Source: Dissostichus eleginoides (lineage: Eukaryota). From it: a DNA stretch of 64,000 bases. Position numbers and translations under genes: made by a program. The stretch is taken from NCBI GenBank assembly GCA_031216635.1, contig CM062274.1, positions 26,420,913 through 26,484,912 of the forward strand, written 5' to 3'. Positions 44,129-63,894 of the stretch are shown piece by piece; positions within the stretch are counted from its first letter, which is position 1, and each line of letters opens with the position of its first letter. Below the pieces are notes generated by a model. It worked only from the letters and a program-made list of their open reading frames with translations, ran no database searches and had not been told where the DNA came from.

Positions 44129-44511
44129 TAAAGGTAGGGTAGGTAAGAATGGAGAAACCAGCTTGAGTGCGCTAGAATTTGAAAGTACACAACCGAAAGA
44201 AATCTGCCCCTTCCTTCAGACTTCCTTACAGAGCCCCTCCAACACACACGAACGCGCACATGACCAATGAGGGCACGAGATAAGTTTGTGCACAGATGGA
44301 AGGCTGACAGGCAGGTAGGCCATCCAGTTATTTTAGCCGGGCCGGCTCAGATGATTGGTCGTGCTTTTTACAGCGCACGGCTTCCAAGATGAAATATTTG
44401 TATGTATTTATTGTCAAAGCATTTAATTTATTCATTGCTATCGGGATGTTAAGAGCATTCCATGGAATATAACAAAAAGTGTTTCTGAAGTGAATTACCT
44501 ACCCCACCTTT
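44129..44511 (-). mobile_element. MITE family A copy (full, ~385 bp)
   Basis: aaaggtagggtaggtaagaatggagaaaccagcttgagtgcgctag ... gaattacctaccccacctttaag. In parp4 intron 33. Orientation opposite to copies 1 and 3. Confidence 0.65.
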
Positions 44512-45221
44512 AAGTAAAAGTATATAAACATTATCAGTAAAATGCATTAGTTAATCGTAAGTAAAAGTTTGCAATGAAATATATCATCAGTGAGTGTTTT
44601 ACTATTAAATGGTGTTTTTTGGATGTATTTATTGCTGCAGTAATGCTTATGTTATTGTGCTGCTGCAGATGGTTAAGGTTATATGTACATTGCAGGTCCT
44701 TTACATACAAGTTGAATCTACAGCAATTCATTATATTCTATAAGATTATGTTTGTAGCTTTGTCGCTGTCCTGCAGAACCATGTATCTCTGAACATTTAA
44801 AAAAACGATGTGATCATACATTTTTCTGCTGATCCAAAAGGCTTTTTTCATTATTTATTCACATTAGGAAGTATGATATATTTTTCAACACATAAAGGGA
44901 ACACCTATCCTTCATCAGATTATCACAAACACATCTTAAGATGCATGGTTTTAAACTGGAGAGGAAGGGAATGAAAATTGGTGATCTGAAATCTATTTGC
45001 TGCATAAAAGGGAAATACTCAAATTCAAATTTAAGGTACTTTTATTAAACGTAAATACAGTACTGGAGTAAATGTACTTGGTTGAGTTCCACAACTCTGT
45101 ACATTACACATATAACCTTTTGCACCTTTTTCTATTTCTATTTTTTTTTTTTAGCTGGCACTTTAACCATGGGGGCGTAATTACTACTTTATGAATTTGT
45201 GACATTTTATTTGTGTTTCAG

Positions 45222-45324
45222 GAGGGTTACTGGCAGTTCACCGCAGAGCTGGGTGAGCTGATCAATTTGGATGTGGACCTATTCGCCAACGTGTTCCTGA
45301 AAAACAAAGGCATCCAGTCTCTGG
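45222..45324 (+). CDS. parp4: parp4 exon 34 (MVP-interacting region)
   Basis: Translation EGYWQFTAELGELINLDVDLFANVFLKNKGIQSLG (human EDGFWKLTPELGLILNLNTNGLHSFLKQKGIQSLG). Confidence 0.88.
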
Positions 45325-46204
45325 GTGAGGACTCTCAGAAACAGATGCAGCCTTTAGAGTGGGAATAGATTTGTCATTTCAGATCATTTCCACATCTTTC
45401 TGTGGCCAAAAGATTGGGTTTACACGTGGAGATAGAAGTATCATCGCCGAATAGTGCCAACATGTTCTTATTAAGTTTAATATAACCTTCCAAGCACTAT
45501 AATATTAACCAATCAGACGAGAATGTCCTATTTGTATTCATGAGTTTTTAGTTTTTAAATCATTAAGATGAGTTTCAAAATAACCTGTTAATGACTAAGT
45601 CTCTTTCCTTGTCAAAATATAAGAAAAAACACTTTGATTCAAAATATAACTCCTCTCTTTGGGGGTTCTATTAAAAGGTATTTACCAGTGAAAAGTTTAA
45701 TATTGAATGTAAAATCAGTATTCAAAGTAAGTAAGTTGCGAGAGCCATTACCAGTGTTAAAACTCAAGGGAGAAGAGAACAATAACCTCAAAACTGACAC
45801 ATTTTAGTGTGTGAAAAGGGAGACAATTGCAAACAATTATCATGCCATGCCTCTGCTTTGTAGAGACTTCAATCAAAAGCCACATTTTCCACTTTTCAGC
45901 ACAAGTATATTTCATGATAGTTTGGGTTATATTTGTCCAGGGTTTGAGATTAACATCTGCTTCACAATGGAGATGTAAGAGATGTTTTTGTGGGGCTCCA
46001 AGTGGAAAAATACACTTAAAAAAATGCAACTGTGACATCTCTGTCCACAATAAATGTGCCTGTCTTTCAGTTTTCATTGAGGACTCTCGCATAGTTGCAC
46101 TGCTTTTTCTTTTTTAAGTCTTACAGATATCTCAGCCATGATGATGAGTTTGTTTCCCACGGATGTTAAAAGCATGTACTGTACTTGTCTGTGTGTGTGT
46201 TTAG

Positions 46205-46337
46205 GTGTGAAGGCCCATGCAGACATCCTGAAGCTGGTGGCGACTCTGCTGGTTCTGCAGCTGATGAGAGAGGAGAAGATAGAGGAGGGCAAACTGCTCC
46301 GCACCCTCTTCTGCCTGGACGACTCCCCTCTGCCCAG
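46205..46337 (+). CDS. parp4: parp4 exon 35 (MVP-interacting region)
   Basis: Translation VKAHADILKLVATLLVLQLMREEKIEEGKLLRTLFCLDDSPLPR (human VKGRECLLDLIATMLVLQFIRTRLEKEGIVFKSLMKMDDPSISR). Confidence 0.88.
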
Positions 46338-47290
46338 GTCTGTCCAAAACTTAATCGAACAACATGAAGATCCTGAATAAAAACACCTAAACTGATTCAA
46401 AGCTTAAAGGCTTACACTGCAACCAAAGTACAAAGGTGTGAAAAGAGGAAATGTAACAGGAAGAGAAACACATCACAACACAACAAAGCATTTATCTCTC
46501 GAATCATAACCTTGAGATGCCCATTGACTTTAAACACTTAAATATGTTGTTCTCATTTGCAAAATATTCAATATTTATTGCAATGTTCTTCTCTGGGTGA
46601 TTAATTTTTTTGGTAAATGTTTTTATTGATTTTCTTTCTTTTGACAAAAGCAAGTGATACAGATTCAGTAAGGATATATACACATACACATGCTAACAAA
46701 TCTTAATTTCAATCCCACCACTCTCCCACCCACCACCCATTAACCCATTGAGTTACAGGATACAGAGCCCTTTAACAGTAAATACAGTGTTTTCATAATT
46801 ACACTAGTTCAAGGGGGGCAAAGAAGGAAGAAAAAAAAAAAAGCACAGAGATAAACACAAAGAAAGAAAATTATAATAATGATAATGGAATAGAAAGAGA
46901 AAGAGAAAAATTATGAATCATAATATATAAATATATATTAAATGCTCACCACTCAATCCAACCTTATTCTTTATCAAGTGGATCTTGTAAGGAGTCATAG
47001 AAGTCCAGAAAGGGTTTCCATGTTCTAATAAAGGTGTTAAGGAGCCCCTGAGTAAGAACTTAATTTTCTCTAACTGTAAGAAGTACATAACATCTTTGAC
47101 CCACTGAGAAAAGGATGGAGGGGAATGTTGCTTCCATTTTAGAAGAATCAAACGTCTCGCAAGAAGTGTAGAAAAGGCTATAACTACATGGGCACTGTTT
47201 GGTAGGGTCTGGGTGATTTTTTGAGACTAGCTGTCACTCTATCCAGAGTGGCAACCTGTTTTCATATCGACTTTCTTCTTCTTCCTCCAG

Positions 47291-47561
47291 GCCTGAGCGT
47301 TGGGAGGAGGTGAAGAGGGCGGTGGACTGGGTCTGCTGGGCGGACCGGCAGTACCCGTGTGTCTACAGCCGGCTGGAGTTTGGATTCAGCTGGGAGTCCT
47401 CCACCCGCCAGCTGCTGGGCTTCGAAGGCCTCCCTCCCTTCTCCGCTCTCAGGGGGCTGAACCTGCAGAAGACCGTCCCCAGGTCCTGGTCCACTGAGCA
47501 GGATAGTGAGAGGGAGGTTCATACCCCTTTGCCTTTTTATGGGGATTACATAATCTATTAG
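47291..47561 (+). CDS. parp4: parp4 terminal coding exon 36 (stop TAG 47559-47561)
   Basis: Translation (R)PERWEEVKRAVDWVCWADRQYPCVYSRLEFGFSWESSTRQLLGFEGLPPFSALRGLNLQKTVPRSWSTEQDSEREVHTPLPFYGDYIIY* (human NIPWAFEAIKQASEWVRRTEGQYPSICPRLELGNDWDSATKQLLGLQPIS). Frame matches ORF 47310..47561. Confidence 0.82.
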
Positions 47562-50057
47562 ATGTATTTGTAGCCCTTTTATTGTCAGTGTGTTTACATG
47601 TTCTTAAATAGGTAGATAAAATTGGCTTACTGCAGACCGGATTTATTCAACTTAAACTGCTTCGGGCGGATGTCTACATATCGCCTTTTCTGCACATCAG
47701 CATCTTTTTTCAAATGTATTCCAATAAGGCGATAGCTTATACTGTTTTACACCGTGGGAAGAGTTGCACCCCTCGTCTTTCTTCTGACCGTTCCACCGTT
47801 TTGGTCAAGTTGAAAATATTTAAACTATTAAAGACGCTGTTGACGTCACTGTAGGAAATGACTGTCTCACTGTCAGATAGTAACCATCATAACAACGACC
47901 AAAGAGCCTGTTTGTTGGAGCAGATCTGCCGGTGAGTGTGTCGCCTATATCGTACCATACACATATCATCCTCCTCACTCTAAAGCTGAAAGCTGTGACG
48001 CTCAATCACACAAAATGTGAGAACAAGCATCCTCCTGTTTGTTCTCATAGACACAATGTCAAACAAATACATAGCAAAAATCGATAATAAAATCCAAGGG
48101 GTGAGGCTAGTCTGTCACACAACAATGGTGATACAGTGTCAAGATCTTGCTGTCATAGAAACAACAAAACAACCCTTGGAGCGTTATGTGGACACGCCCT
48201 TATTCGGGGGAAAGAGGATTTAAAGGCTAGATTACATTTCATGGCCATGTACACTGATAGTTATCATCTTGTTCACTTGCATGCAAGTCCACAACAATGC
48301 CTTCAGACAGAGATAGCATCATTGTGACCAGTGATCAAAGGGAAGGTCACGTATGGGTAGCAGTGTATTTGCATGTTTGTAATCATCCCCTCCCAAATAG
48401 TCAAAGTCTACTTCCTCTAAATATTTTACTGGTAAATGTAGTCACAGCTGTCTTCCCACAGTTGAACACACAGTCACATGTTATTATAAAATAAGGAAGC
48501 GGTGCCTTTGTGCCCAAAAAGGGTCAGTTTCTTGGAAACATCTTTGACTGACCTGCTGAATGTGTGTGTTGCTTCTCTGAGTAACCTTGTACATGTGAAT
48601 CTTTATTTGTCTTGTGTTTCATTTATAACTGCTGAAGCACCTTTTGATTATTTTAGTGTAGGATATAGGATATTCTTTCACAGTATATGCAGTTTTATAT
48701 CATGGTAGCGGTATAAATCAGGGTACAGTATAGTATTGTTCTGTAAATTCAATAAGAAGTGGATTAAAACAACCTGTTTTTGGATTATTTTCCTCTTTTA
48801 TTTGGAACTACAATATTAACAAAATCAACCGACTCACGAGAGACAAAGCCAAATACTCAAAACCTTTAAAATTCTGAATGTGAAACACGTTTTAAGGTTA
48901 AACGGTGCAAATAACTTTGACTTTGAAATACATATCAGTCTGACTTCAGTCAATGCAATATGAAGCACCATAAACATCCCACAAGTTTTAATTTCAATAT
49001 ATACCAAAAGAATATATCATTTCATATCATGTTTCATTCAAAAAAGTAAAGTAAAACTCCCTTTTTTTGAAGTACATTACAGTACTCGAGTAAATGTGTA
49101 CATTTTATATAGCTAGATCAGGAAATGGCAACTTTTTTATACAAGATAACACTTATTATAAAAATATGGTGGGTGTATTACATGTTCTCTGACAAGATAA
49201 AGCTCTTGCACACAACAACTTGCTGTTATCAGATAAAAAGCAGCTTTACCACTTCCCATTTTTTCTTAAAGGTCCCCTATCATGCAAAATGCACCTTTGA
49301 TGTCTTTTATACACACATATGTGTCCCCGGTGTGTAAGGAGACTCACAAAGTGTCAGAAAATACAACCCTTTCTCTTTTCCTCCGTACCCAAATCTCTAA
49401 AAATGGGGGTACAACGGAGCTGATCCAGATGTGCTGCGGTCATGACGGACATTACTGAAATGTGGGCTGGCTTTACACCCACGGCCCTATCAGAAACGTC
49501 GCTATCAGAAACAATGCCCGACTATTTTGGAAGTAATATGATCAATGTTTACATTAGCAAGCATCGCTAACACTCAGAGCTAACACTACTGGAGAGAGTA
49601 TGTGTAAAGAAGCAGGATATAAAAAGGTACTCCCCACTATATGTGTTTGTAATCATGAACAAAAATAAAATCTTTCAGTTCCCCAGTTGTCTTCATTTGT
49701 TTTCTTGTGTTTATCAGCATTGATTTAAGATCCCTGCTTTCACAACGATGTCAGCTAATACTCTTTTAAACTTGTCAAAGAGAGCTCTACGGGATCAGTA
49801 CATCTTGAATGTTATTAAACTTCATGGGTTGTTAAGACCATATGTCTCTATTTAACACAATGGACTCTATTATAACACTTATTTCAATGTGCTTCGAGAA
49901 TACTATGTTTTAATCATGGTAATGTCAATAAAGCTGATTTAAATTTGTCTTGACTCTCAGCGTTAGAAAAAAATAGCATTTCCTTATATATGTATATTGT
50001 TTTTTAGATAGATAATTATCTGGTACAGCAATAGGAAAATACTCTTAACACTTGAGA

Positions 50058-50155
50058 GTTGTGACTTCCTCAAAAAGAGACATTTTTTAGAAATTGAAAC
50101 CAACCAACACACTTTCCTCAGTCACATACTTCAATACTTGACATTCCCATGAGCG
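50058..50155 (+). promoter_or_regulatory. Proximal promoter of lectin gene 1 (PU.1/ETS box + ISRE-like GAAATTGAAACC)
   Basis: gtgacttcctcaaaaagag is the reverse complement of a PU-box (CTTTTTGAGGAAGT). GAAATTGAAACC at ~50090 matches the ISRE/IRF consensus GAAANNGAAAC. A second GGAA lies at 50113. The block is conserved in the paralog upstream region 61477-61600. Confidence 0.5.
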
Positions 50156-50225
50156 ATGGAGGAAATCTATCTCAACCTTGACGATGTCAAACCCCTAAGC
50201 TCAAGATCATCAACAAAACAAGAAG
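50156..50225 (+). CDS. C-type lectin gene 1, exon 1 (cytoplasmic tail)
   Basis: Translation MEEIYLNLDDVKPLSSRSSTKQE, ATG at 50156, donor gaag|gtaagg. The paralogous exon sits at 61601. Confidence 0.8.
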
Positions 50226-50297
50226 GTAAGGGTCAGTCAGACAGAGTGAGCTGTGGATTTTGGATTTATTATACTCCCTGGTTTTCTCTGTGTTCAG

Positions 50298-50387
50298 GTC
50301 CCAGCAGATTTCCCCCAGCGTCTGTTCTCGGTCTGGGGCTGCTGGTTGTTTTCCTGCTGGCTGGACTCATCGGCCTCGCTGTCCACC
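50298..50387 (+). CDS. C-type lectin gene 1, exon 2 (transmembrane segment)
   Basis: Translation GPSRFPPASVLGLGLLVVFLLAGLIGLAVH is a hydrophobic signal-anchor typical of type II C-type lectin receptors. Donor cacc|gtgagt. Confidence 0.8.
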
Positions 50388-50605
50388 GTGAGTCTTATTT
50401 TTAATATATATATTATATTAGTTTCATAAGTCATTTTGAACGTGTGATTTTAAGGAGCAATATTCTGCTCTGAAAGATGCACATTTGACCAAAACATCTA
50501 TTGTTTTTCTATTTTTCTCCTAGGGCGAAAGTAGATAACATTCACTTTGGTTTGTGTCAGTCGGATTGCATCAGGTAATTTAAGAAACATCTTTTTTCAT
50601 TTCAG

Positions 50606-50793
50606 ACCATAACTCAGTAGGTGGCGCAGCTGCAGATCTCTCCGCTGTCAAAGCAAACCTGACGTTTGACGTGAGCGTCTCCAGGCCAGAGATCAGCTGC
50701 TCTACTCAGTGACTGAAGAGAGAGACAGACTGAATGCCAACCTCACTGAAAAGACCAGAGAGGTTGACAGGCTTCAGAGTTTGTCCAAACAGA
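50606..50793 (+). CDS. C-type lectin gene 1, neck exon (frame-inconsistent; possible internal acceptor at 50710)
   Basis: Homologous to the lectin-2 neck exon, with a single ...LQARDQL...NANLTEKTREVDRLQSLSKQ unit. Using the canonical acceptor cattcag|acc gives an in-frame TGA at 50710. Only the internal acceptor ctactcag|tg restores the frame shared with the donor caga|gtgagt. Confidence 0.5.
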
Positions 50794-51439
50794 GTGAGTG
50801 CTTTTCTATGACGGTTTTGCACAGGGCTGGGCAATATGGATTATATCAATTGTCATGATATTTTTGAGCAAATACCTCAATATTGCATCGATATTCTAAG
50901 GTTGGCAATTGCTCCTTTGAAATAATAACATGAGCGTACCAGAGAATGTCATTGGAAATGTTATAATGTGATTGAACAAAGATATAATGCAAACTTAAAA
51001 AGGTCAAAGACAAAAGATGTTACACTCTACAATGATGTCTTCATACTAGCGTGTTGTCTTTTCATAAAAATATGAAAAGATAACATGCCAACTTACTATA
51101 TGATGAAATCCAAAGTTCAACAAACTTATCTATTATTGTTGGACAATATCAATATATTGCCAAACCCTTCTGCATAAAAGTGTAGAACACCTTATTTTAC
51201 TCTCAGCACCTTTTCTTCACTCTCTGTTAATTTAATCATACATTTTTTTTATGTGTACAGCCCTTTAAAAAAAATCTTAGTAACATCATTTTAAAAGCTA
51301 AAAAGCTTCAGTCCCATCACTTCACATAATTATAAGATTGTGAATAACTAAATATCTCTTTATTAGGATGTTTTAAAAATGTTGACACCTTGTATTCTGC
51401 ACATTTTTAACTGCTCTCTTTTTATAGGTTCTGTCCCTG

Positions 51440-51840
51440 AAACTGCGCTGGTTCAGCCATTTCTAAAAAAGCCCTCACTTGATTCCCCATTCTTAAACAT
51501 TTTAGACATATTTCCAAGCTCCCATTTTTAGATAAAGTTTTAGAAAAAACTGTAGCAGAATAATTGTTAGCTTTTATCAATGACAACAATATTTTAGAGA
51601 AATTCTAATCTGGCTTTAGAAAAATTCATAGTACTGAAACGGCTCTTTTTGAAGTTTTTAATGACTTGTGTGATTTTATTTGTAGGCTTATTATATTTAT
51701 TTTCTATGTGTTTTTATGTTTACATGCTGTTGTTTAATTATCTAGCTCACCGTGTATTTTTATGTTAGAGCACTTTGTAACTGTGTTTTGAAAGGTGCTA
51801 TATAAATAAAGTGTATTATTATTATTATTATTATTTATAT
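51440..51840 (+). mobile_element. Second copy of the non-LTR 3' fragment family (in lectin-1 intron)
   Basis: Ends ...ttagagcactttgtaactgtgttttgaaaggtgctatataaataaagtgtattattattattattattt (tail + (TTA)n). Confidence 0.45.
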
Positions 51841-52222
51841 GGTGATCTACAAGATATATTTCCCAGGAATGTTTTTTATATCATCTTCCTTTTTTGATGT
51901 CATGTCAGTCAAAATTACCGCCTTTATTGCAGTATTTTTTTACTTGATTCATTAAGCAATTGGACTTATAGTACCGAGTAAGGAATCATAACAGACTCTT
52001 AAAATGATGCAGAGTGAGAGAAGTTTTATCCTTTGTCCCATGCAATGATACCGGTCTATCAGAATAGATCTTGGCTACCATCAACAATGCTTATTGAATA
52101 TGTATTTTTCAAAATCACACAAGGGACAAGAATGCTCTAAGAGTTGAATATTTCAGCAAGGAGTCAACTAAATCTTACAACTCAAAAGAAGGTAATAAGG
52201 CATGTCTTGTGTTTTTTTGCAG

Positions 52223-52365
52223 AGAAAACGTGTCCTGCAGGATGGAGGATGGTCGGTTGTGTCTGTTATCTCCTCTCTACGGGGAAAGCTTCATGGGAAC
52301 AAAGCAGACAAAACTGCAGAGCCAGAGGAGCAGATCTGGTGATCGTAGACAGTAATGAAGAACAG
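52223..52365 (+). CDS. C-type lectin gene 1, CTLD exon A
   Basis: Translation KKTCPAGWRMVGCVCYLLSTGKASWEQSRQNCRARGADLVIVDSNEEQ (CTLD CPxGW...CY...W..S...C...GA.L..I.S.EEQ). Frame matches ORF 52144..52437. Confidence 0.85.
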
Positions 52366-53939
52366 GTAATGTGTGCTGCTTTAACAATTTATTGTTTTAC
52401 TTATCTGAATCATATACAGAATATAAAGGTTCTTTAATTGAATAGGTGCCAATGTATATTGAATAATTAAAATTAACAAAACTTTGATTTTATATTTTTT
52501 ATATGGTGGTTTTATCTATCATTTAGCTTATTTATTACTTATCTACTTCACAGCTGTGTGTTATCGTTACTGGCTTTTATGCACAATGAGTTATTTTACT
52601 TTTGATACTTCAAGTTTATTTTTATGCTAATACTTTAGTGTTTAAGTACAAATGTTCCCAAAGATGACCACACCCCTTTGTACTACACTGCGTTCAATTG
52701 TGTTTTTATTGCATGCTTTTATGTGTATCTTTCATACGTATCATTTAGATTAGATTACAAAAATGAAATGTATGATTTATGTGTAACGACTGAATGAACA
52801 CCAGTAGAGGACTCAATAGTGTTGTGTTCAAAATTCCAGGAAAGACAGACAACTTCTAAGTTTAACTATTTATTATAAGAGAGCAAAATATATATATTCA
52901 CTTGGCCAAGGACTCCGTCACGTCATAGAAATCACAGGCAGCAAAGCTGTAATCTGTAACCTTGGTTTAGACTTTGGCTCTCTCTTGTTGGTACACAGAC
53001 TCAGATAAGGTCTCTTGGCAACACGACCTTCCAATCAGCATTCGGCCGGCCGGCGAAGTCCCTCCCTATACTATCCGCTATCCTAGTAATTTGTTTTCAC
53101 TAAAGCTGCTTTGCAGGCATATAGTGGAATCCTTCATTTACACTGCTTCCTAGCTATGCGTGGGTGCGAAGCTCCCATACAACTCGAGGCCGGAGCGATG
53201 TCCTGTGTATGAATAACTCTTTGTATGCTTCCAGTGTCTGCACCTGACCTTGCTACTCTGTATTGCAGGCTAAAACTTTCTTATGTGACTTTTCCCTTCG
53301 TTTCCTATACAATCCATCAAACCTTGGGATTGGTGATTTTGTCTATTTATTCCAAAGTCACATCAACATAAAATGAGCACAATAAGCTTATAATGTAATA
53401 ATAAGAATCAGTCTTTCTAATGTTATACAAAAATAGACTCCACAATAGCACGACTCAGGGACAGAGGCTTAGGTTGCAAAAAGGTCTTTATAGCAGAGGC
53501 TCGGCACACGGGAGATCAGTCAGTAAGGCAACCAAAACAGGTGAGGATTAGGCAGGAACAGGGTCAGGACACGAAGCTGGGTCAGGTACACGTGGAAACA
53601 AGATACTAGTAGGAATAAACACTGCTGGAATGCTAGGAATAACAAAGACGAACTGGCACTGAGGGGAATGTGGACGCAGACTAAATAGACAGGGGGAGGG
53701 ATGATAATGGGGCACAGGTGAGGCTAATTAGGGATGGGAAGCAGGTGGAGTTCAATCAAGGGCAAGAAAGCTGAAACTGAAATGAGAGAAACAAAATAAA
53801 AACAGGAATACTGTAATAACAAAAACATCAACATGCTGGCTAGGGCCTTACATTATGTCTGAGTTAGTTAGAAGGGAATAGTTATCCGAATGTCGATGTT
53901 GATCCCTGTAAACTTCATTTATAATATGTTTAAGACTAA

Positions 53940-54128
53940 GGCCCGTCCACACGGAGAAGAAACCAAGACGAAACCGATTTCGAACTGAAGTCGTTTTCAA
54001 AAAAGTCTTCCGTCCAAACGAAACCGCTCGAAACCGCTGGAGAGGCTGTAGTACATATGCCGGGCCTGTAAGTGGCGCTGTACTTCCGCCACAAAATACA
54101 CCAAAAGCAGCGAATAAGACCGATGATG

Positions 54129-54174
<46 letters not shown>

Positions 54175-54566
54175 CATTATTGTTGCTGATGGTTGTGGTA
54201 GAGGAGCTGTAGATTTTTCACTAACATCTGTATCATGGTCGGTAGCGTCTGGAGCATGAATGCAACCCTGTGATCCGCCATTGTTGTTGTTGTTGGCGAA
54301 ACGCATCAGCAATGACGCGGGGTGAGCAGGAGAGGTGGGGAGAGGCGGGGCTATGGCGTCATCGATTCAGGAAATGATCGTATAGGGCGTATACACGGAG
54401 CTGCAAGCGTTTCGTCTCCAGACTTACCCACTTTGGGAGCCGTTTTCAAAGTGTATCGGTTTCGGGCTCCGAAGCCGCGGCTCCGTTTCGGCTTCGTGTG
54501 GACAAACCGTCTACGATAAAGAACTTTAGCGGATGCAACTGAAATCGTCTCCGTGTGGATGGGGCC
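53940..54566 (+). mobile_element. TIR element (GGCCCGTCCACACGGAGA termini) containing (ATT)n
   Basis: 5' ggcccgtccacacggagaag ... 3' tctccgtgtggatggggcc are perfect ~17-bp inverted termini. Internal (ATT)14 at 54130-54172. In lectin-1 intron 4. Confidence 0.65.
54130..54172. repeat. (ATT)n microsatellite
   Basis: (att)x14 inside the TIR element 53940-54566. Confidence 0.95.
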
Positions 54567-54608
54567 TAAGACATCAGGACCTTTTATATTAATATTTTTC
54601 TTTTACAG

Positions 54609-54712
54609 AAGTTCATGACCAGCATGATCAAGGAACCAACTTGGATTGGGTTGAATGACATAGACCAAGAGGGGACCTGGAAATGGGTCGATGGATCTCT
54701 ACTGACTCAGAA
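54609..54712 (+). CDS. C-type lectin gene 1, CTLD exon B
   Basis: Translation [34 protein letters not shown] (WIGL.D...EG.W.WVDGS). Acceptor ttttacag|, donor cagaa|gtaagg. Confidence 0.85.
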
Positions 54713-55856
54713 GTAAGGCATAGTTGATATTATAGGTGCCTTCATACTATAGCTGTGCGTTACATGGCTTTTTTGTATGACTGTCTAAACATAATTATTA
54801 ATTGTTAATACTTTTCTGAATTTACGGAACCCAAGTCTAGAAACTGCTGATCATAACCATTCAACGTTTTTGTTGTATTTAAGAGAATAATGAAAGGGGT
54901 GTCTTAATAAAAATGAGGTGTGCTTCTTTTTTTTCTTGAATCAGCAATTTGCCCCAAAATAGAGGAAAGCAGGCAGTGAAAGTACATCAGAAGTGTGGGG
55001 GACTTCAACAAATTGACGAAACATGCATTGAACATTTGACCTTGGGAATAAAATTGGTGGGAAGCCAAAACTCCAAAGTAGATTTTACTAGAAATTAGGG
55101 GATGGGGGAAATAATTGATACAGCATAGTATCGCGATACTTTGCGTGGCGATATTGTATAGATATACGGACGCCAAGTATCGATATTTTATTATATAAAC
55201 TGTAGCATATCCCTCGGAAAGATGGTCGTACACTTGACTGATGATTTCAAATGTATTGAAAACTCCAAAAACCAACGTAAGAGCTACACAAAGAAACAAA
55301 ACAACAAATACACTTAGGCTACATCCATATGAGCATGACTTTAGAATACCATTAAACAAGAGAACTTCAAATAGTTAGCAAAGTTATAATACATAAACGA
55401 ATTAAGACACAAACCACATTTTTATATTACAGTTAACACTAACCTTGTGCCTCTTCGGGGGGTGCTAATACTTAAATGTAAACTTTATCTTTGATATCGC
55501 CGTATTTAAAGGTTGGTATCTCTGTTAATATCTGTACTTTATCTCCGTTCTTTTCCAACGTCAAGTTTTTGCTTTGGGAACAGTAACTTCCTGCTAATAG
55601 CGCAAAGTCGCCTTCAAAATAAAAGCATGTCTATATAAAACAGGAAGTTACGTTAAGACATGTATACAATTGCAATGAAAGCAACAAAAACAATGCCATC
55701 TCCTTTTCAGGTTCAATGAACACAAATTAGGTTATTTACATAAACTATTCATATTGCAAATACATTTTTTAAAGGGAAGACGGACATGGATATGCAATAT
55801 ATCGTATCGCAATACTTAGCATATCGTAGAACCGCAATACTTTCGTATCGTGTCTT

Positions 55857-56243
55857 AAAGGTGGGGTAGGTAATTCGCTTCAGAAACACTTTTTGTTATA
55901 TTCCATGGAATGCTCTTAACATCCGATAGCAATGAATATATTAAATGCTTTGACAATAAACACATTAAAAAATGTCATCTGTGGAAGCCGTGGCGCTGCA
56001 AAAAGCACGACCAATCATCTGAGCCGGCCCGGCCAAAATAACTGGATGGCCTACCTGCCTGTCAGCCTTCCATCTGTGCACAAACTTATCTCGTGCTCTC
56101 ATTGGTCATGTGCGCGTTCGTGTGTGTTGGAGGAGGGGCTCTGTAAGGAAGTCTGAAGGAAGGGGCAGATTTTTTTCGACTGCGTACTTTCAAATTCTAG
56201 CGCACTCGAGCTGGTTTCTCCATTCTTACCTACCCTACCTTTA
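55857..56243 (+). mobile_element. MITE family A copy (in lectin-1 intron 5)
   Basis: aaaggtggggtaggtaattcgcttcag ... ctcgagctggtttctccattcttacctaccctaccttt. Flanked by tatcgcgata / (GTATC)n-like palindromic repeats at 55100-55200, 55800-55856 and 56245-56290. Confidence 0.6.
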
Positions 56244-56599
56244 AGTATCGCGATAGTATCGTATCGTATCGTATCGCGGGGAGCCTGGTGATTCCCACCC
56301 CTGCTAGAAATACATAAAGCTGCATTTATGATGTTTTGGCATCATGTGGAAGCTGTGGATTGCTTGATTGGAATCAGAAGTAAAGGTCTGTGTTTCGATG
56401 CCCAGCCCATACAATTAACATGTTGTTGTGTTGATGTGTTATTGAACCCCACAAGCAATTGGCATAACCAAATGTGTGGGGATTTTGGTCTCTTTGAGCA
56501 TGGGTGTAAATGGGTGAATGCTATATGTAAAAAGCATTTAAATGCAGTTCAAGTTGGGGGGAGGTATCCTCAAAAACTAACTTTTGTATGACTTCCTAG

Positions 56600-56753
56600 G
56601 TACTGGGGAAAGCCACCTGATAATGGTAATGGTGATCCTAAGTGGGGTGAAGAGGACTGTGCATGTCTTGTAAATAACTGGAATGGTGAAAACAACTGGA
56701 ATGATCTGCGGTGTACTACCCCTCTGCAATGGATCTGTGAAAAAATACTGTAG
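56600..56753 (+). CDS. C-type lectin gene 1, CTLD exon C (stop TAG 56751-56753)
   Basis: Translation YWGKPPDNGNGDPKWGEEDCACLVNNWNGENNWNDLRCTTPLQWICEKIL*, with the WND and conserved Cys. There is no canonical EPN/QPD triplet. Confidence 0.85.
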
Positions 56754-57680
56754 CTTGTGTCTGTGAGGCAGTGGGTTTGTCTTCCCATTGGAAGGTTGTG
56801 GGTCCGATCCCAGCTCCTGCCGTCCTCAAGTCGATGTATCCCACTTAACCCCAGATTAATCCCTTATGAATGTTAGCTTCCTTGAGCTGGTGGCATTTAG
56901 TTTGGCTGCCCCTGCCTATGAATATGAGAGGATGCTAGATATGTACAGTATATACAGTATGTATGCTTTGAGGAGTTGTAAAGATTGGATAAGCAATATA
57001 TAAAATGCTATCAATTTACCAATACATTTTTTACTACTTTTACAATTGATGCAAAATGACTTCAAAAGTGCTTTTGTATTTGCTAAACTGTATATATAGA
57101 GAAAGAGAGTCTACATCAACAAGTGGTTGGAGGTCAGGAATGAAGTTATTGGTTTGAGTTTTGGCCAAATGTGACTGCTTGTTACTGGGAATATTAACCA
57201 TGGGAAATTAGGATGTTTAGCATGTTTTATACATGCTCATGATCATCATATGCAATTAAAAAAAAGCTACATATTGTACCGCTTATATGCTATGAAATAA
57301 TAAACGTTGTCCTGAAATGCATTTATTAGGATAATAAAGTTGACTTTAGCTGTTCCAATCACAAGTTCATATTTGTATTTTTTGCCTCTACTGTGACATG
57401 TTTCCATGCTTTAATGTTCAAAAAGCTCTTTATTTTTCTCATACTGCCTGTGCTGCAGCACCTCTTTTCACCCTCTGTCTGAAACCAGAGCCCAGTCTGC
57501 TCTGATTGGTTAGCTAGCCGGCTCCGTTGTGATTGGATATGACATTGTATGCACCTGTCCTCTGGTTGAACTCCTGATACCAAGGGTGACGTGGGAAGGT
57601 TGCTTACGTAGGACAAAGCAAATAAATACGCACAGACAAGGCGTCCTCGTGGGCCGGCATGACCAGATGCTCAGAAGGTT

Positions 57681-58850
57681 ATGGATAACCTCGCATCACT
57701 AACCGCCAACATAGCACAGATGGGACATCAACTCAACCTGGTTTCAACTCATCTTACTCCGCCTGCTCCTGAGGATCCAGCTCCCCCACAAGAGTTAGCA
57801 CCGGTTCCAGCCCAGCCCGCTCTCCCTTCACGTGAGCCAAATATTCCCACTCCAGAGCGGTACGCAGGTGCCTTAGGGACATGTAAGTCTTTCTTAATGC
57901 AGTGTTCTCTTGTCTTTGAGCAGCAGCCGTCTACTTATGCTAACGACAGAGCTAAGATTTGTTATATGATAGGTTTACTTACGGGTAGCGCCCTAGCCTG
58001 GGCATCAGCTGTATGGGAGAGTCAGTCCAACCTTTGTAATTCTTATCCAGAGTTTGCAGAGGAAATGAAGAAAGCATTCCACCACCCCGTCAGCGGTAGG
58101 GACGCTACTAAACGCCTCCTCTCACTGCGACAGGGCTCCCGTAGTGTAGCCGAATACTCAGTGGAATTTAGGACCTTAGCTGCAGAGGCGGGTGGAATGA
58201 CACAGCGCTTCAAGGGGTTTTTCCAACAGGGCTAACTGATTCTGTTAAGGATGAGTTAGCAGTGAGGGACGAATCAGCTAACTTGGATGAGTTGGTCTCC
58301 CTAGCCATAAGACTGGATAACCGCCTTAGGGAGCGACGTAGGGAAAGAGCCAGCCGATCTCCTGGGTCACTCCCCTCTCGCCCTGTCTCGTCTCCTCTCG
58401 CAAGATTCAGGTCGGAAACTTTCCCAAGTCCCAGTGCCCCATCTGAATTATTTTCTCCTCTCCTGTCTTCAGAGGAACCGATGCAGCTAGGCAGAGCCCG
58501 ACTCACTCCCCAAGAACGTCTCCGGAGAATAAGAGAAGGACTTTGTGTCTACTGTGCTCACTCCGGTTCGTGGACAAATGCCCCCAGCGCCCAAAAGAGG
58601 GTGCTCGCCAGTAAAGGTGGGGATACTGGTGAGCAAGGCTGTTTCTTCCTCAACCCCCCAGACCTGCAAGCCACTTGGAGCCACACTGTTGTTAAACCAA
58701 CAGTCTCTCACTCTGCCTGCCCTAGTGGACTCTGGGGCTGATGAGAGCTTTTTGGATGCCCAACTGTGGCTCTGCAGCAGGTTTACTCGACATTGTCGCC
58801 GTTTCTCAATGTCGAGTAAACCTGCTGCAGAGCCACTATTTCAAGTATAG
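57681..58850 (+). mobile_element. Ty3/gypsy-type LTR retrotransposon fragment (gag + start of protease, frameshifted)
   Basis: ORF 57681..58235 is a retrotransposon Gag-like sequence (…[18 protein letters not shown]…). ORF 58262..58741 contains a zinc-knuckle-like [11 protein letters not shown] 58545..58850 contains the aspartic protease motif [10 protein letters not shown]. The three run in different frames and truncate before RT, so the element is decayed. Confidence 0.7.
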
Positions 58851-59336
58851 GACTGTTTAAATGTATGTTAAATGCCCAGCATTCGGCGCCACTCGATGAC
58901 GTAGTGTACTTGAAATAGTGGCTCTGCAGCAGGTATACTCGACATTGAGAAACGGCCTGAGTCTCCATGAACCACGTTACGATCAAGCATTTTGGACTTC
59001 CGCTGTCGCAACTCTTCTATCTATACGGCGCTGCGTCCACATAGCTATAGTGAAATAATATAATCGAAAACATTAAGCCTCTTTGATTTAATAATCGGAG
59101 CTGAAACCTCTCTGCCATCTCATATAATACTAACTTCCTTATTTATCTTTGAATAATAATAACATAAAAATAAAGACGACTATACTACGGTCCTTCGGTC
59201 CTGATATTAGCACCTGCAGGCAGGCTCCATGGGCCTGTCAGCTCCGGACAGCGCAAAATGCGTATATGAAGTGCTACGTCATGAACGCAATAAATCATAC
59301 CCTCGTGGGGGCGCGCTCATGTGATTGGCTTAGAAT

Positions 59337-59555
59337 GGGGGCGGCTGTGGCTCAGTGGATAGAGATAGATAGAGTGCTGGACTTCGAATCAGGGGGTAGC
59401 AAGATCGAGTCCCACTGCAGTCAATATGTCATTGTGTCCCTGGGCAAGACACTTCACCCCAAATTGCTCCTGTGGGGATTGTCCACAGTACTGAATGTGT
59501 GTAAGTCGCTTTGGATAAAAGCGTATAACAAATGACATGTAATGTAATGTAATGG
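59337..59555 (+). mobile_element. tRNA-derived SINE (same family as 3826-4290)
   Basis: ggcggctgtggctcagtgg (A box), cttcgaatcaggg (B box), gggcaagacacttcacc...ctcctgtggggattgtccacagta, tail gtaagtcgctttggataaaagcgtat + (GTAAT)n. Confidence 0.7.
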
Positions 59556-60056
59556 AGGAAACATCTGATTGGCTATAGATAGAACAAATTACAAGTACGA
59601 ATCGTGTGACTGTCAGGGGACTCTTCAAAAACCCACACACGAATGCACAGCAATCCATGCACAGAAAGTGGGTTGTGTTTGCAGGTGCAGCGGTTTTAAA
59701 CGGAAAACAAATATGTGTTGATCAAAAATACATATGCAAAACTTTTTTCTGTGTTTGTATTTTATTTACATGTATATAAAAAGGGACACATTTGTGTGTG
59801 CATTGAAAAACACAAGTGTGAATCCGGAAATACAAGTGTGACTCCTTCTGTGTGCATGTGTGTATTATGAGACTGTTCTGAGCCCATACAACAGTGAGGA
59901 AAAAACAACTCGTACCTCGCAGACCACACAGACCTGGGTGTCTGAACGGATGCCATAGAGGTCCTATTCCTTGCGGCGGCATCTTTGACACGAGAGTTGG
60001 CCTCCTCCCACAGCACAGTCTCCGATGCGTGTGTTGGTAGCTTGGCACGCTACATC

Positions 60057-60061
60057 CCTCT

Positions 60062-60100
<39 letters not shown>

Positions 60101-60160
60101 TTCATTTATTCATTTATTTATTTATTTATTTATTTATTTATTCATTTATTCATTTATTTA
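60057..60160. repeat. (ATTT)n microsatellite with TTCATTTA variants
   Basis: tttatttatttattt... about 25 units. Confidence 0.95.
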
Positions 60161-60758
60161 ACAGGGACAGTGCACATTAATTAACATTGCTGTAAATGTG
60201 CCAGAGTTAGCCAAGAGGCTATTTTTCGTCTGTAGTCCCTGGACAGATTTTACAGTCAACCAAAAACACATTTCATTTTAAACAAGTAAATACAATCAAA
60301 TTAAAACATGCAACATACAGTACTGGAATACTTAAATAAAACAATTAAAAGACAGAACAATAAAACAAAACAAATAAAACAAAACAAAAGAACATGATAA
60401 AACACAGACAGTGGGTTGTAAGGTGCAGAAGATTGTGTCAGTGTTGGCAGAGCTGATTCCTCACTAACCAGGTTTTGAGTTTGGATTTAAATAAACTGAA
60501 TGTAGTCTGGTCTCTGATTGTAGAGCAGCTTTAACAGAAAATGATGACTGACCGAAATAACTTTTTCTGAGTGGAATAATGCAATCTCCTCTCTCTGCAC
60601 CTCTTGTTATCCTAGTTGCAGTTGTGTGTATGTTAATAAACTGTCTAAGAGGAGGTGAGGTAAGGCCGTTGACAATCTTGTAAAAAAGGCAAGCATTTGC
60701 ATGTTTAATTAGGTTTTCCCAGCTCAACAAGTTGTGCGTATGTTGGTAGCTTGGCATG

Positions 60759-61064
60759 CTACTTCCTCTCTGCAACAACAGTCGGACGGAGGTTGTCGTC
60801 GGGTTCCGGGATACGCTTGCAGTGGCTGGCGTGGATCCAAGGAATCTTTCCGGCAACCTTCACGGCGGTCTTGGTGATGAGGAGAATGTGGAACGGACCC
60901 TGGAACCGTTGCTGCTTCCAGTGTTTCCTCCTGAAGTCTTTGATCACTACCCAGTCACCGGGCTTGTGGTGTTGTGGCGCATCAGCTGGCGTCGGCAGTA
61001 CGGCTTTCACCTGAGAGTGGATAGCTGAGAGGGAGACTGAAAGACTTATACAGTAGTTCAACAA
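60759..61064 (-). mobile_element. Retroelement integrase C-terminal fragment
   Basis: Minus-strand ORF ...PGDWVVIKDFRRKHWKQQRFQGPFHILLITKTAVKVAGKIPWIHASHCKRI is the GDWV/SH3-like integrase C-terminal domain typical of gypsy/retroviral integrases. The motif gttggtagcttggca(c/t)gctac is duplicated at 60033-60060 and 60737-60765. Confidence 0.6.
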
Positions 61065-61474
61065 AAGGTAACTTAAAGTGTCTCAACTTTCAGAAACTAA
61101 CATTACATTAACAGAATAATATTCTTTAAATCTGTGCCAGTTTGTCTTGTGCCTTGTGCCATCAAGAGAGCCAGCTTTTCACACCAAAAAATATTTGTAG
61201 CTGCTTTCACAATGATGACATGCTATTCTCTTTTTATTAACCAGTAAAATAGATCTTTACAGGATCAGAATATTTTGAATATTATTAATCTTTGTGGCTT
61301 TGTAAGATTATATGTCTCTATTTAACACAATGGACATGATTATCACACATGTTTCAGTCTTAAATCTGTATTGTCAATGTGCTTTGGCAATAGTATGTTT
61401 TTAATATGGTCATATCAATAAAGTTAATATTTCCTGATATTCTTTTTTTTTATATATATATATATATATAAAAT

Positions 61475-61600
61475 GATGTGTCACTTCCTCAAAAAGATAA
61501 AGCATTTAGAAATTCAAACCAGCAACCACACTTTTCCCGGTCACATACTTCAGGATACTTGCTGCAGAGCTGACCTTCTAGGAAAGAGTTGGCATGAGCA
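61475..61600 (+). promoter_or_regulatory. Proximal promoter of lectin gene 2 (conserved PU.1/ETS box, degenerate ISRE)
   Basis: tgtcacttcctcaaaaaga and gaaattcaaacc lie in the same order and spacing as upstream of gene 1. The ISRE second half-site is G>C substituted. A (TA)n at 61452-61472 sits immediately upstream. Confidence 0.45.
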
Positions 61601-61670
61601 ATGGAGGAAATCTATGCCAATGTTGACGATGTCATATCCCTAAGCTCAAGATCATCAACAATACAAGAAG
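61601..61670 (+). CDS. C-type lectin gene 2, exon 1 (cytoplasmic tail)
   Basis: Translation MEEIYANVDDVISLSSRSSTIQE is the paralog of 50156-50225 and sits in the same promoter context. Confidence 0.8.
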
Positions 61671-61743
61671 GTAAGAGTGTCAGTCAGAGTGCACTGTGGA
61701 TTTTGGATTTATTGTATTACTCCCTGGTCTTCTCTGTGTTCAG

Positions 61744-61833
61744 GTCCCAGGAGATTTCCCCCAGCGTCTGTTCTCGGTCTGGGGCTGCTGGGTGTTTTCC
61801 TGCTGGCTGGACTCATCGGCCTCGCTGTCCACT
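61744..61833 (+). CDS. C-type lectin gene 2, exon 2 (transmembrane)
   Basis: Translation GPRRFPPASVLGLGLLGVFLLAGLIGLAVH, donor cact|gtgagt. Confidence 0.8.
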
Positions 61834-62040
61834 GTGAGTCTTTCTTTTAATACGTTTAATAATGTCATTTTGAACGTGTGATTTTCAAGAGTAATATTCT
61901 GCTCTGAAAGATGCACATTTGACCAAAACATCTATCGTCTTTCTACTTTTCTCCAAGGGCCAAATTAGGAAAACATTGACCATGGTTTGTGTCAGTATGA
62001 TTGCATCAGGTAATTTAAGAAACATCTATTTTCATTCCAG

Positions 62041-62328
62041 ACCATAACTCAGTAGGTGTTGCAGCTGAGCATCTCCAGGCCAGAGATCAGCTGATCAACC
62101 AGCTGAAGGCCAACCTCACTGAGCGTCTCCAGGCCAGAGATCAGCTGATCAACCACCTGAATGTAAACCTGACTGAGCGTCTCCAGGCCAGAGATCAGCT
62201 GATCAACCAGCTCAATGTAAACCTCACTGAGCGTCTCCAGGCCAGAGATCAGCTGATCAACCAGCTGAAGGCCAACCTCACCGAAAAGACCAGAGAGGTG
62301 GACAGGCTTCAGAGTTTGATGGACAAGG
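62041..62328 (+). CDS. C-type lectin gene 2, neck exon with 4 x 18-aa repeats
   Basis: Translation YHNSVGVAAEH + (LQARDQLINQLKANLTER)x4 variants + ...KTREVDRLQSLMDK. Phase-consistent with flanking exons. Confidence 0.8.
62083..62298 (+). repeat. Coding 54-bp tandem repeat x4 (lectin-2 neck)
   Basis: ctccaggccagagatcagctgatcaacc(a/c)(g/c)ctgaa(g/t)g(c/t)(c/a)aacct(c/g)ac(t/c)gag(cgt/aag) x4. Each unit encodes LQARDQLINQL(K/N)(A/V)NLTE(R/K). Confidence 0.9.
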
Positions 62329-63055
62329 GTGAGTGCTTCATGTGGGGTTTTGCATCGGGCTCGGTATGTATATGTAAGATATCAATTATCATAATATGTT
62401 TTACAAAATACCTCGATATTGATAGTCTAAGGCTGACTATTGATCCTTTCATAAAATAGTTACACAATGACACTTTTTCATTAATGATAATCATGAATTA
62501 GTTTTTAATGACTTAGTTGTGAATGATTTCATTTATAGTTTGTTTTATTTTTCTTCAGCCACCATATTTATATTTCTCTGTAAACTATGCTTATGGCCAG
62601 TTTCCTTGTCTAAATACTTTAATATAAGCAATAGGAAGAAGAACTTAGAGGTAGTTTGTTCCAGATATTTGCAGCATAATAATAAAAAAGGATAACAAGG
62701 TTTCAAACCAATTTAGAACTGTTGCCGAAAGTCAGACCCAGTTTTCCAGTCGGTCTAGAAACTAACACCGAGATGTTGCCACTGTCTGTGTTTAAGTGGA
62801 TGTCATTGAAGACTTTAACAAGATCAGTCTCAGTGCTGTGGTGCCTGACTAGATCACATCGAAACAGTTATTTAAATCCCAAAAAAGAGAAGTAGTTGCT
62901 CTGCAATGAAATATGTGATCTCTTTTGATCCCTCTAAAAATGCTTGATAAATATTTTTTTTCATTATTATTACAAAAGTGACATATAATGCACTCAAGAG
63001 TTCCATATTCCAGCAGTTAAAGCAGTAAATCAACAAGATCTTAACACTTTTACAG

Positions 63056-63198
63056 AGAAAACGTGTCCTGCAGGATGGAGGAAGTTTGGTTGTTCCTGTT
63101 ATCTCCTCTCTACTGAGAAAGCTTCTTGGGAACAAAGCAGAGACAACTGCAGAGCCAGAGGAGCAGATCTGGTGATCGTAGACAGTAAGGAAGAACAG
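63056..63198 (+). CDS. C-type lectin gene 2, CTLD exon A
   Basis: Translation EKTCPAGWRKFGCSCYLLSTEKASWEQSRDNCRARGADLVIVDSKEEQ. Confidence 0.85.
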
Positions 63199-63416
63199 GT
63201 AATGTGTGCTGCTCTAACACTTGTGATTGTATAACTCCCTGCTTTTATCAATCAATAATGTTTTTATTGTACATATACTAGCAAATGTGTCTATCAGCTA
63301 TAATGATTACGTCACAACAATGGTGTTAATTACATATTTCTGAGCTAATAAAAAGGGAAAAGTTATCTGAATGGTGATGTCCATCCAAGTAAACTGCATT
63401 TTTAATATGTGAACAG

Positions 63417-63529
63417 GAATTCATCTCTAGCATGAAGATGAAGGAACAAACTTGGATTGGTTTGAGTGACAGAGAAGAGGAGGGGACCTGGAAATGGGTG
63501 GATGGATCTCCACTGACCCTGACTCTGAC
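63417..63529 (+). CDS. C-type lectin gene 2, CTLD exon B
   Basis: Translation [38 protein letters not shown]. Acceptor gtgaacag|, donor ctgac|gtaagg. Confidence 0.8.
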
Positions 63530-63772
63530 GTAAGGCTTTACTTTGGTTTAAATACAGACGCTGGTTTATGTTGTGACCTTTCTAAATGTTTCACATGTTT
63601 CTGTAATGGGAGTTAACACAACACACAGGATGCATTTAAACGTAGGGTGTCTGCCCCTTTCACCAGAAGATTCATTTGGGTATTAAGAAAAGAACATGGC
63701 TGTATTACTTATAGTTATTTGTATTTGATGTCCAATCTTTTAGTTATCTTGTTTTCCTGTAATACCTGTTAG

Positions 63773-63894
63773 GTTTTGGAACGGAGGAGAGCCTAATATT
63801 GGCGAGAGACTGTGCAGAATTGTATCCTTACACCAATGGGTGGAACGACCAGTCCTGTCGGGACAATGTGCATTCGATCTGTGAGAAAGATTAA
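63773..63894 (+). pseudogene. C-type lectin gene 2, last CTLD exon with apparent 1-bp deletion (frameshift)
   Basis: The in-phase reading gives FWNGGEPNIGERLCRIVSLHQWVERPVLSGQCAFDL*. The +1 frame from ~63814 gives canonical DCAELYPYTNGWNDQSCRDNVHSICEKD*. Compared with paralog 56645-56660 (ggtgaagaggactgtgca), this exon reads ggcgagagactgtgca, one G short. Confidence 0.55.

Follow-up and report, generated by a model that had tools for sequence, protein, structure and literature searches.

Which genes follow the vault PARP gene PARP4 in the Patagonian toothfish Dissostichus eleginoides, whether they are intact and how their transcription is initiated are the questions raised by a stretch of 64,000 nucleotides (contig CM062274.1 of assembly GCA_031216635.1, positions 26,420,913 to 26,484,912 of the forward strand), which is referred to as the window in the following and from whose first letter all positions are counted. 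Two genes, G1 (50156-56753) and G2 (61601-63894), were identified downstream of PARP4, both on the plus strand, and the explanation that accounts best for the locus as a whole, to which a probability of about 0.8 is given, is that they are tandem paralogues and belong, within the group II (CLEC4-type) C-type lectin receptors, to the CD209-like branch of teleosts. G1 and G2 are hence an ordinary pair from a known and annotated family. A first-pass annotation of this DNA had described two type II lectin genes of the CD209/CLEC4 kind as tandem neighbours downstream of parp4 and had assigned to both a six-exon layout, comprising cytoplasmic tail, transmembrane segment, neck and three exons for the C-type lectin-like domain, or CTLD; the former claim is borne out by Pfam and the gene models, the latter by exon-by-exon translation.

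Throughout both genes, which have this one layout in common, the exon borders follow the GT-AG consensus. In G1, exon 1 (50156-50225, 70 nt) encodes the cytoplasmic tail (MEEIYLNLDDVKPLSSRSSTKQE, MEEIYLNLDD...), exon 2 (50298-50387, 90 nt) a transmembrane segment with no charged residue and exon 3 (50606-50793, 188 nt), which holds a frame-breaking insertion, the neck; exon 4 (52223-52365, 143 nt), exon 5 (54609-54712, 104 nt) and exon 6 (56600-56753, 154 nt) encode the first, second and third part of the CTLD, the last including KPPDNGNGDPKWGEEDCA, the WND motif and the stop codon. G2 likewise possesses exons for the tail (exon 1, 61601-61670, 70 nt, MEEIYANVDDV...), the transmembrane segment (exon 2, 61744-61833, 90 nt), a neck with repeats (exon 3, 62041-62328, 288 nt) and the three CTLD parts (exon 4, 63056-63198, 143 nt; exon 5, 63417-63529, 113 nt; exon 6, 63773-63894, 122 nt, with EPN at 63789-63797). 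Its neck contains four 54-nt (18-residue) repeats, ERLQARDQLINQLKANLT, at 62065-62281 (Tandem Repeats Finder: period 54, 4.0 copies, 92% matches), each of which carries an NLT sequon.

Assignment to the family was approached by profile and protein comparison, whereby both genes were found to match Pfam Lectin_C (PF00059) with E-values of 7e-21 (G1) and 2e-24 (G2). After repair of their reading frames the match covers the whole length of the profile (positions 2-107) at 75 bits for G1 and 87 bits for G2, and for G2 as assembled just positions 2-92 at 65 bits. The succession of tail, one transmembrane segment (the hydrophobic stretch LGLGLLVVFLLAGLIGLAV), neck and a single C-terminal CTLD on three exons is that of group II receptors; the intact open reading frame (ORF) by which such receptors are likewise recognised is found in neither G1 nor G2 as assembled. 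Nearest among solved single-domain relatives are the carbohydrate recognition domains (CRDs) of Mincle, DC-SIGN, BDCA-2, Dectin-2 and DCIR (E-values of 1e-33 to 1e-24), all of the CLEC4 group, and these matches, together with those to Pfam, settle the fold; the best protein matches come from D. eleginoides, followed by Eleginops maclovinus, Trematomus bernacchii and other notothenioids, being named CD209-like or CLEC4E-like; the likeness to mammalian CD209 meant here is one of best-match similarity only. Of the motifs of mannose-type CRDs, G2 possesses EPN and, in a shifted frame, WND, which come into register just after repair of the frameshift, and G1 has WND together with a loop reading KPPD where others have QPD or KPD. 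An arginine or lysine of the type by which Mincle and Dectin-2 pair with FcRgamma is located in the predicted transmembrane segment of neither gene. The N-terminal MEEIYxN[L/V] (50156-50185 and 61601-61630) was observed to be near-invariant across the family, with E2 and Y5 being conserved in at least 90%; judged from its residues it resembles a YxN (Grb2-type) or hemITAM-like (half an immunoreceptor tyrosine-based activation motif) sequence, not an inhibitory motif (ITIM), and for comparison the CLEC9A tail reportedly reads MHEEEIYTSL.

Considering these features, each gene is predicted to encode a type II membrane protein composed of a short tail with a tyrosine motif, an uncharged helix, a helical neck and one Ca2+-dependent CRD. 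The binding loop of G1 would read (Q/K)PPDNGNGDPKWGEEDCA, and that of G2 would, with EPN, be DC-SIGN-like and be carried on a neck of four N-glycosylatable 18-residue repeats. By homology, the products would most likely be displayed as oligomers on myeloid cells and bind microbial or self glycans, whereupon uptake or signalling would be triggered via the N-terminal YxN[L/V] tyrosine motif, in line with findings on the CD209 of tongue sole.

The position of the pair next to PARP4 was derived from exon-sized ORFs on the plus strand, which according to Pfam encode, one after the other, BRCT (16.4-17.0 kb), the PARP catalytic domain (26.8-28.2 kb), VIT (30.6 kb) and VWA (34.8 kb), and from a 633-codon ORF (41454-43352), the matches of which bear the PARP4 MVP-ID C-terminal domain (PF26156) and which is read as a large PARP4 exon. 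As this order of domains together with the MVP-ID domain is the architecture of PARP4, the gene (body at 16425-47558, plus strand) is indeed the upstream neighbour of G1, its last coding exon being located within 47217-47558, approximately 2.6 kb ahead of the G1 ATG. A synteny comparison in other teleosts had been proposed along with the first description, and it revealed the PARP4-lectin adjacency to be conserved in Plectropomus and T. bernacchii: in Plectropomus leopardus a CD209-like gene (P0072) follows 4.2 kb downstream of a 1965-aa gene, with the last exons of which the PARP4 3' exons of the window are colinear, and a T. bernacchii scaffold is approximately 94% identical to 46738-57536 of the window, covering the last PARP4 exon through G1. 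Between G1 and its T. bernacchii orthologue, which is intact, 15 differences were counted in 741 nt (5 synonymous, 10 non-synonymous; dN/dS 0.57), and exons 5 and 6 are 99-100% identical versus approximately 94% for the flanking non-coding DNA. Counterparts across percomorphs are 55-60% identical to G1, and, judged from these comparisons, G1 is the conserved orthologue that adjoins PARP4 across percomorph fishes.

The G2 subfamily is multi-copy in notothenioids. Its exon 6 in the window (63773-63894) is of the EPN type, and the T. bernacchii counterparts (34818-35419 and 3399-4015 of scaffold CADEHM010000365.1, L006) are of the QPD type, with flanks of approximately 92% identity, which suggests either exon swapping or gene conversion among paralogues or a diversification, possibly under diversifying selection, of the sugar-binding loop. 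On the same scaffold the unit of last PARP4 exon, G1 and a G2-type gene was observed twice (6951-23159 and 38370-56349), and the further upstream PARP4 exons are absent between the two copies. This double unit is either a segmental duplication of the PARP4 3' end only or an uncollapsed haplotig, and it may explain chimeric RefSeq models in which Lectin_C is combined with a PARP4 C-terminal domain (P0029).

The question whether the pair is intact had been passed over by the first-pass annotation, and both ORFs are disrupted as assembled. In G1, the frame entering exon 3 meets a TGA at 50710-50712, after 88 codons, and the exit from this exon requires another frame. Comparison of homologous exons attributes this to eight extra bases, GTTTGACG, at 50664-50671: where G1 has AACCTGAC-GTTTGACG-TGAGCG, the two T. 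bernacchii orthologues, like three paralogues of Eleginops, show AACCTGAC-TGAGCG, and as GTTTGACG is thus missing from five homologous exons in two species, it is a derived 8-nt insertion in G1. Upon its removal a G1 product of 246 aa results, which equals T. bernacchii P0022 in length and is 93% identical to it. In G2, the frame that enters exon 6 reads FWNGGEPNIGE and the remainder of the exon (DCAELYPYTNGWNDQSCRDNVHSICEKD, then a stop) lies in another frame. Where homologues have ...GGCGAAGAGGACTGT... (G-E-E-D-C), G2 has GGCGAGAGACTGT, an in-frame version of which is GGCGAAGAGGAC; the frameshift is thus located between EPN and DCAEL, within 63803-63809, inside the GEEDC calcium- and sugar-binding loop, and like the G1 insertion it is derived. 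As assembled, G2 ends at the TGA at 63882-63884 and not at the family stop TAA at 63892-63894, whereby WND and the last two conserved cysteines are lost. Once repaired, exon 6 can be aligned over its entire length with the CRD of human DC-SIGN (EPNNVGEEDCAEF...WND), with EPN, EEDC, WND and the cysteines in register.

Rescue by splicing was considered for both genes. For G1, the frame is restored by none of the other possible acceptors or donors; the GTGAG created by the insertion would yield a 64-nt exon of wrong phase, and complete skipping of exon 3, yielding a neck-less isoform, is the only in-frame option; for G2, the sole in-frame alternative acceptor (63792) is devoid of a pyrimidine tract. 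The PPD in place of QPD in the G1 loop was dropped as a sign of decay, since every notothenioid orthologue in the alignment shares it. The proteins were also looked up as exact sequences, in repaired, as-assembled and exon-skipped form, and no independent copy was found. The deposited D. eleginoides protein P0001 (GenBank name C-type lectin domain family 4 member E) is identical to the G2 product over exons 1-3, then runs 12 codons into intron 3 (GECFMWGFASGS) and ends by reading through the exon 5 donor; this 226-aa "CLEC4E" model of G2 is hence mis-spliced and truncated.

Two explanations of the lesions were found to be about equally likely, namely that they are real (recent or segregating nulls) and that they are assembly error, and each of them comes close to an even chance. 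According to the first, both genes have been recently inactivated, or segregate as nulls, in the Patagonian toothfish. An insertion of 8 nt is unlike the usual 1-nt homopolymer error of continuous long reads (CLR), it resembles a microhomology-type duplication (TGAC-GTT-TGAC) and, as outlined above, it is not shared by the homologous exons. Moreover, a D. eleginoides protein model of G1 is missing among the matches, P0001, the model deposited for G2, ends behind exon 5 and thereby avoids the shifted last exon, and several other toothfish paralogue models (P0002, P0004, P0071) are truncated or look out of frame, pseudogenes being common in large tandem immune-lectin families. This speaks for genuine loss, but no further lesion is found in the 741 nt of G1, the coding sequence of which is 98% identical to T. 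bernacchii versus approximately 94% in the flanking non-coding DNA. If real, the G1 lesion is very recent or polymorphic.

According to the second explanation the animal possesses two intact, functional genes, and the two frameshifts are artefacts of assembly or polishing. The toothfish assembly was generated from PacBio Sequel CLR data with FALCON-Unzip, Arrow and Pilon and possesses a Merqury quality value (QV) of 32.89, i.e., approximately one error per 2 kb, with a BUSCO completeness of 84% for the gene set versus 97.9% for the genome (PMC11569150). At this QV approximately 0.8 errors are expected over the 1.6 kb of G1 and G2 coding sequence, and short-read polishing is unreliable among close paralogues, both of which count against genuine lesions. 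Furthermore, the G2 lesion sits in a GA-rich run, G1 is otherwise perfectly conserved, and many paralogue models from the same assembly look frame-damaged, with the T. bernacchii proteins P0007, P0008 and P0022 having complete C-termini. Against an artefact stand the 8-nt insertion, which is an unusual consensus error, the result of the exact look-ups and the PARP4 ORF at 41454-43352, which is uninterrupted over 1.9 kb of the same window. The latter is the sole remaining control for indel errors in the window, as a homology search with PARP4 for this purpose matched just two partial proteins. Among the paralogue models, early ends, fusions of two genes or out-of-frame CTLD exons were observed for P0002, P0004 and P0071 of D. 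eleginoides and for P0046 of D. mawsoni; such models reflect either many Dissostichus pseudogenes or systematic indel errors of these assemblies. A farther-reaching scenario, according to which the sub-Antarctic Patagonian toothfish truly and very recently lost both PARP4-adjacent receptors, among them the orthologue that stayed beside PARP4 throughout percomorphs, its Antarctic relatives kept them and duplicated the unit, and the PU.1-at-start architecture described below, which non-notothenioid percomorphs have as well, survives in dead copies, is conceivable but rather doubtful.

Transcriptional control was approached from the upstream regions, which had been described as homologous and as a shared promoter. 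Homology was found between 49734-49933 and 61201-61423 and between 50060-50140 and 61479-61561, at 79-84% identity, and in so far the description was right. Since exons 1-2 plus introns 1-2 of G1 and G2 are 88% identical, and the upstream identity is no higher than that of these introns, the shared promoter is part of the duplicated unit and not a sign of constraint. The two motifs named for these regions are located where they had been reported, as direct reading of the sequence revealed. The ETS/PU box of G1 (gtgacttcctc, GTGACTTCCTC on the plus strand) is located at 50061-50071, with the core GAGGAAGT on the minus strand at 50064-50071, and that of G2 (gtcacttcctc, GTCACTTCCTC on the plus strand) at 61480-61490, with the same core on the minus strand. 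Conservation was judged from 20 first exons, which were drawn from loci of T. bernacchii, Eleginops, Perca, Anabas and Plectropomus and from three RNA-seq contigs. In 14 of them the exact ACTTCCT (sense strand) precedes the ATG by 92-157 nt, the background being 0.03 per 170 nt, and of the remaining six, two are cDNA contigs that do not extend so far. It occurs in notothenioids, Perca, Anabas, Plectropomus and one further species, and in a ten-sequence alignment no other stretch upstream of the ATG region is conserved as well as the PU-box columns. As the sequence around the box cannot be aligned, e.g., between Anabas and the notothenioids, the PU box is a true footprint, and the earlier idea of a PU box holds, the motif being kept at the same place in paralogues as well as in orthologues of several percomorph lineages.

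With regard to the start of transcription, three Logan RNA-seq contigs were observed to be intronless cDNAs of the family, namely L007 (1-110), L008 (1-60) and L009 (1-65), with 5' untranslated regions (5'UTRs) of 104, 56 and 60 nt; among the conserved blocks the PU box is present in L007, GAAAC in L007 and L009, and GCTGCAGA in L007 and L008. The 104-nt 5'UTR of L007, which derives from a G1-type orthologue, starts with CTTGTGACTTCCTCAGAAGTTGAAACC at the PU box, and as the contig begins there, the start of transcription is to be placed at the PU box or further upstream, and the site resembling an interferon-stimulated response element (ISRE) inside the transcript. The proximal upstream region of G1 (50040-50155, plus strand) is therefore probably 5'UTR in part. 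Extended to just past the ATG (50040-50160), its 121 nt show 97.5-98.3% identity with both G1 copies of T. bernacchii versus approximately 94% for the surrounding non-coding DNA, a difference which weakly hints at constraint on this region as a whole. Most likely, initiation would be organised by the conserved ETS/PU.1-type site, which would be located at or just downstream of a TATA-less start, the conservation of the site being observed and its occupation by a factor predicted.

From the same region it had been concluded that the genes are interferon-responsive. The ISRE-like GAAATTGAAACC of G1 (50090-50101, plus strand) is the only match to GAAANNGAAAC in the window, and its G2 counterpart GAAATTCAAACC (61509-61520, plus strand) is degenerate, as its second GAAA is broken. 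According to the interferon explanation, PU box and GAAATTGAAACC form a functional ETS-IRF module, which renders the pair interferon-inducible and part of a co-regulated antiviral neighbourhood with PARP4. The exact GAAANNGAAAC core is indeed found in G1, in its two T. bernacchii orthologues and in two other notothenioid paralogues, and only in these; its spacing to the PU box is constant within notothenioids (approximately 24 nt), and the PARP4-lectin adjacency is conserved. However, one occurrence in 64 kb compares with an expectation of 1.0, and a match or more turned up in 61 of 100 shuffled sequences, which is chance level. G2 and the three T. bernacchii G2-type copies read GAAATTCAAAC, with the same C in all, Perca keeps just GAAACC of the site, nothing recognisable as ISRE was found in the upstream regions of Plectropomus and Anabas, and Eleginops G1-type promoters are without both the PU box and the ISRE-like motif. 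The element is probably located downstream of the start site, inside the 5'UTR, and altogether the ISRE claim is not supported. The term classic composite ETS-IRF element does not apply either, since approximately 20 nt separate the two sites, the ETS core lying on the minus strand and the IRF-like site on the plus strand, and a contiguous GGAANNGAAA is not formed. Induction of a teleost CD209, that of tongue sole, was studied with a bacterial challenge, not with interferon or poly(I:C) (PMC5618497), and adjacency by itself says nothing on co-regulation with PARP4. The ISRE-like sequence approximately 20 nt past the PU box is thus notothenioid-restricted and partly degenerate, with a putative function. 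Interferon responsiveness of the G1-type copies is possible, its basis being one motif match, interferon inducibility of the pair and a functional link to PARP4 are speculation, and the module as a whole is considered unlikely.

A further explanation assumes that the upstream blocks (PU box, GAAACC, GTCACAT and GCTGCAGAGCTGACC) are conserved for a role of the mRNA 5'UTR in translation or stability and not as factor sites. Some of the blocks are indeed held within the 5'UTRs (56-104 nt) of the three cDNA contigs, the longest of which begins at the PU box. Against this stands that the block with the highest conservation is a perfect SPI/ETS core and that PU.1 sites near the start site are typical of TATA-less myeloid promoters. 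Also, the human homologue DC-SIGN is a documented PU.1 target according to PMC3877075, which cites Dominguez-Soto 2005. A pure 5'UTR role is improbable. The PU-box footprint fits this control of DC-SIGN, and it likewise fits the tongue sole CD209, which is expressed in myelomonocytes and involved in phagocytosis (PMC5618497).

Returning to G1 and G2 as tandem CD209-like group II receptors with a PU.1-type start, several points weigh against this reading. The conserved blocks lie in the probable 5'UTR, so that they may be conserved partly for a role at the RNA level, and paralogous promoters are not independent samples, which leaves four or five lineages as independent support. The dN/dS of G1 is based on just 15 differences, and expression, start site and factor binding of both genes are predictions. 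If both frameshifts are true, this fish has no functional lectin from either gene, with the exon-3-skipped G1 as the only form in frame. Both loci hence need read-level checks before they are counted as genes or pseudogenes.

The value of these findings is mainly that of a corrective annotation, with little beyond, G1 appearing without any protein model. The conserved PU box provides a simple, testable handle on the myeloid expression of fish CD209-like lectins, and the PARP4-G1 adjacency an anchor for naming orthologues, the RefSeq names in use (CD209-like A/C/E, CLEC4E-like, CLEC6A-like, CLEC10A-like) being best-hit labels.

The remainder of the window, with approximately 38% G+C, introns, microsatellites and transposon debris, is as expected for a teleost. 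Within PARP4, the 3' element of an UnaL2 long interspersed element was observed in an intron (19972-20022, minus strand; Rfam RF00436, 57 bits), and an acidic low-complexity ORF, (DESEDESEDAKDESKD)n, is located at 40583-40945 (plus strand), just 5' of the 633-codon ORF; it could be a lineage-specific PARP4 coding repeat or a microsatellite-like intronic repeat. Intron 4 of G1 holds a miniature inverted-repeat transposable element of approximately 630 bp (53937-54568) with 24-nt terminal inverted repeats, TAA flanks (Harbinger-like) and an internal (ATT)18, which is present in T. bernacchii as well. The spacer between G1 and G2 (57681-61064) consists of transposon debris. Located outside of both genes, it comprises a Ty3/gypsy gag fragment (57681-58235, plus strand; Pfam Retrotrans_gag and Ty3_capsid), a hairpin with 50-nt arms (58766-58956), a tRNA-like short interspersed element (approximately 59340-59530) without an ARAGORN call, (TTTA)25 at 60061-60160 and an integrase-like C-terminal fragment on the minus strand (60759-61064), approximately 540 nt before the G2 ATG. 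Scans for tRNAs and Rfam families returned nothing relevant in the lectin region.

Compared with known systems, the upstream region shares with ETS-IRF composite elements and ISREs that the G1 sequence GAAATTGAAAC fits GAAANNGAAAC and has an ETS core nearby; it differs in that the composite element is contiguous on one strand, in that the IRF-like site is degenerate in G2 and not conserved beyond notothenioids, and in that it is probably located in the 5'UTR. The tongue sole receptor CsCD209 belongs to the same annotated family, whereas the toothfish genes are known from their sequence only and both copies are frame-disrupted here. Mincle (CLEC4E), after which G2 is named in GenBank, gives the best match of any single CRD when the whole repaired G2 is compared (E-value of 3e-33), and EPN is common to the two; unlike Mincle, G1 and G2 possess a transmembrane segment without arginine or other charge for FcRgamma pairing and a tyrosine motif of their own in the tail. 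As the transmembrane arginine of the Mincle/Dectin-2 type is absent, the name CLEC4E is a best-hit label and does not denote orthology. From human DC-SIGN (CD209) and DC-SIGNR (CLEC4M) the toothfish genes differ by a G2 neck of four 18-residue repeats instead of approximately 7.5 repeats of 23 residues in DC-SIGN, by being without the di-leucine motif and by the PPD loop of G1 in place of EPN. Their genomic neighbourhood differs as well, human CD209 being located at 19p13 and PARP4, which is not its neighbour, at 13q12, and 1:1 orthology is not established. What is shared is the type II topology, including a helical neck with repeats and one CTLD of the long form, the acidic cytoplasmic tail with a tyrosine motif, a PU.1-type site in the proximal promoter, as stated for DC-SIGN in PMC3877075, and the binding loop of the repaired G2 (GEPN-IGEEDCAEL...GWND), which aligns with GEPNNVGEEDCAEF...GWND of DC-SIGN, the chains of which are top matches at an E-value of 2e-18.

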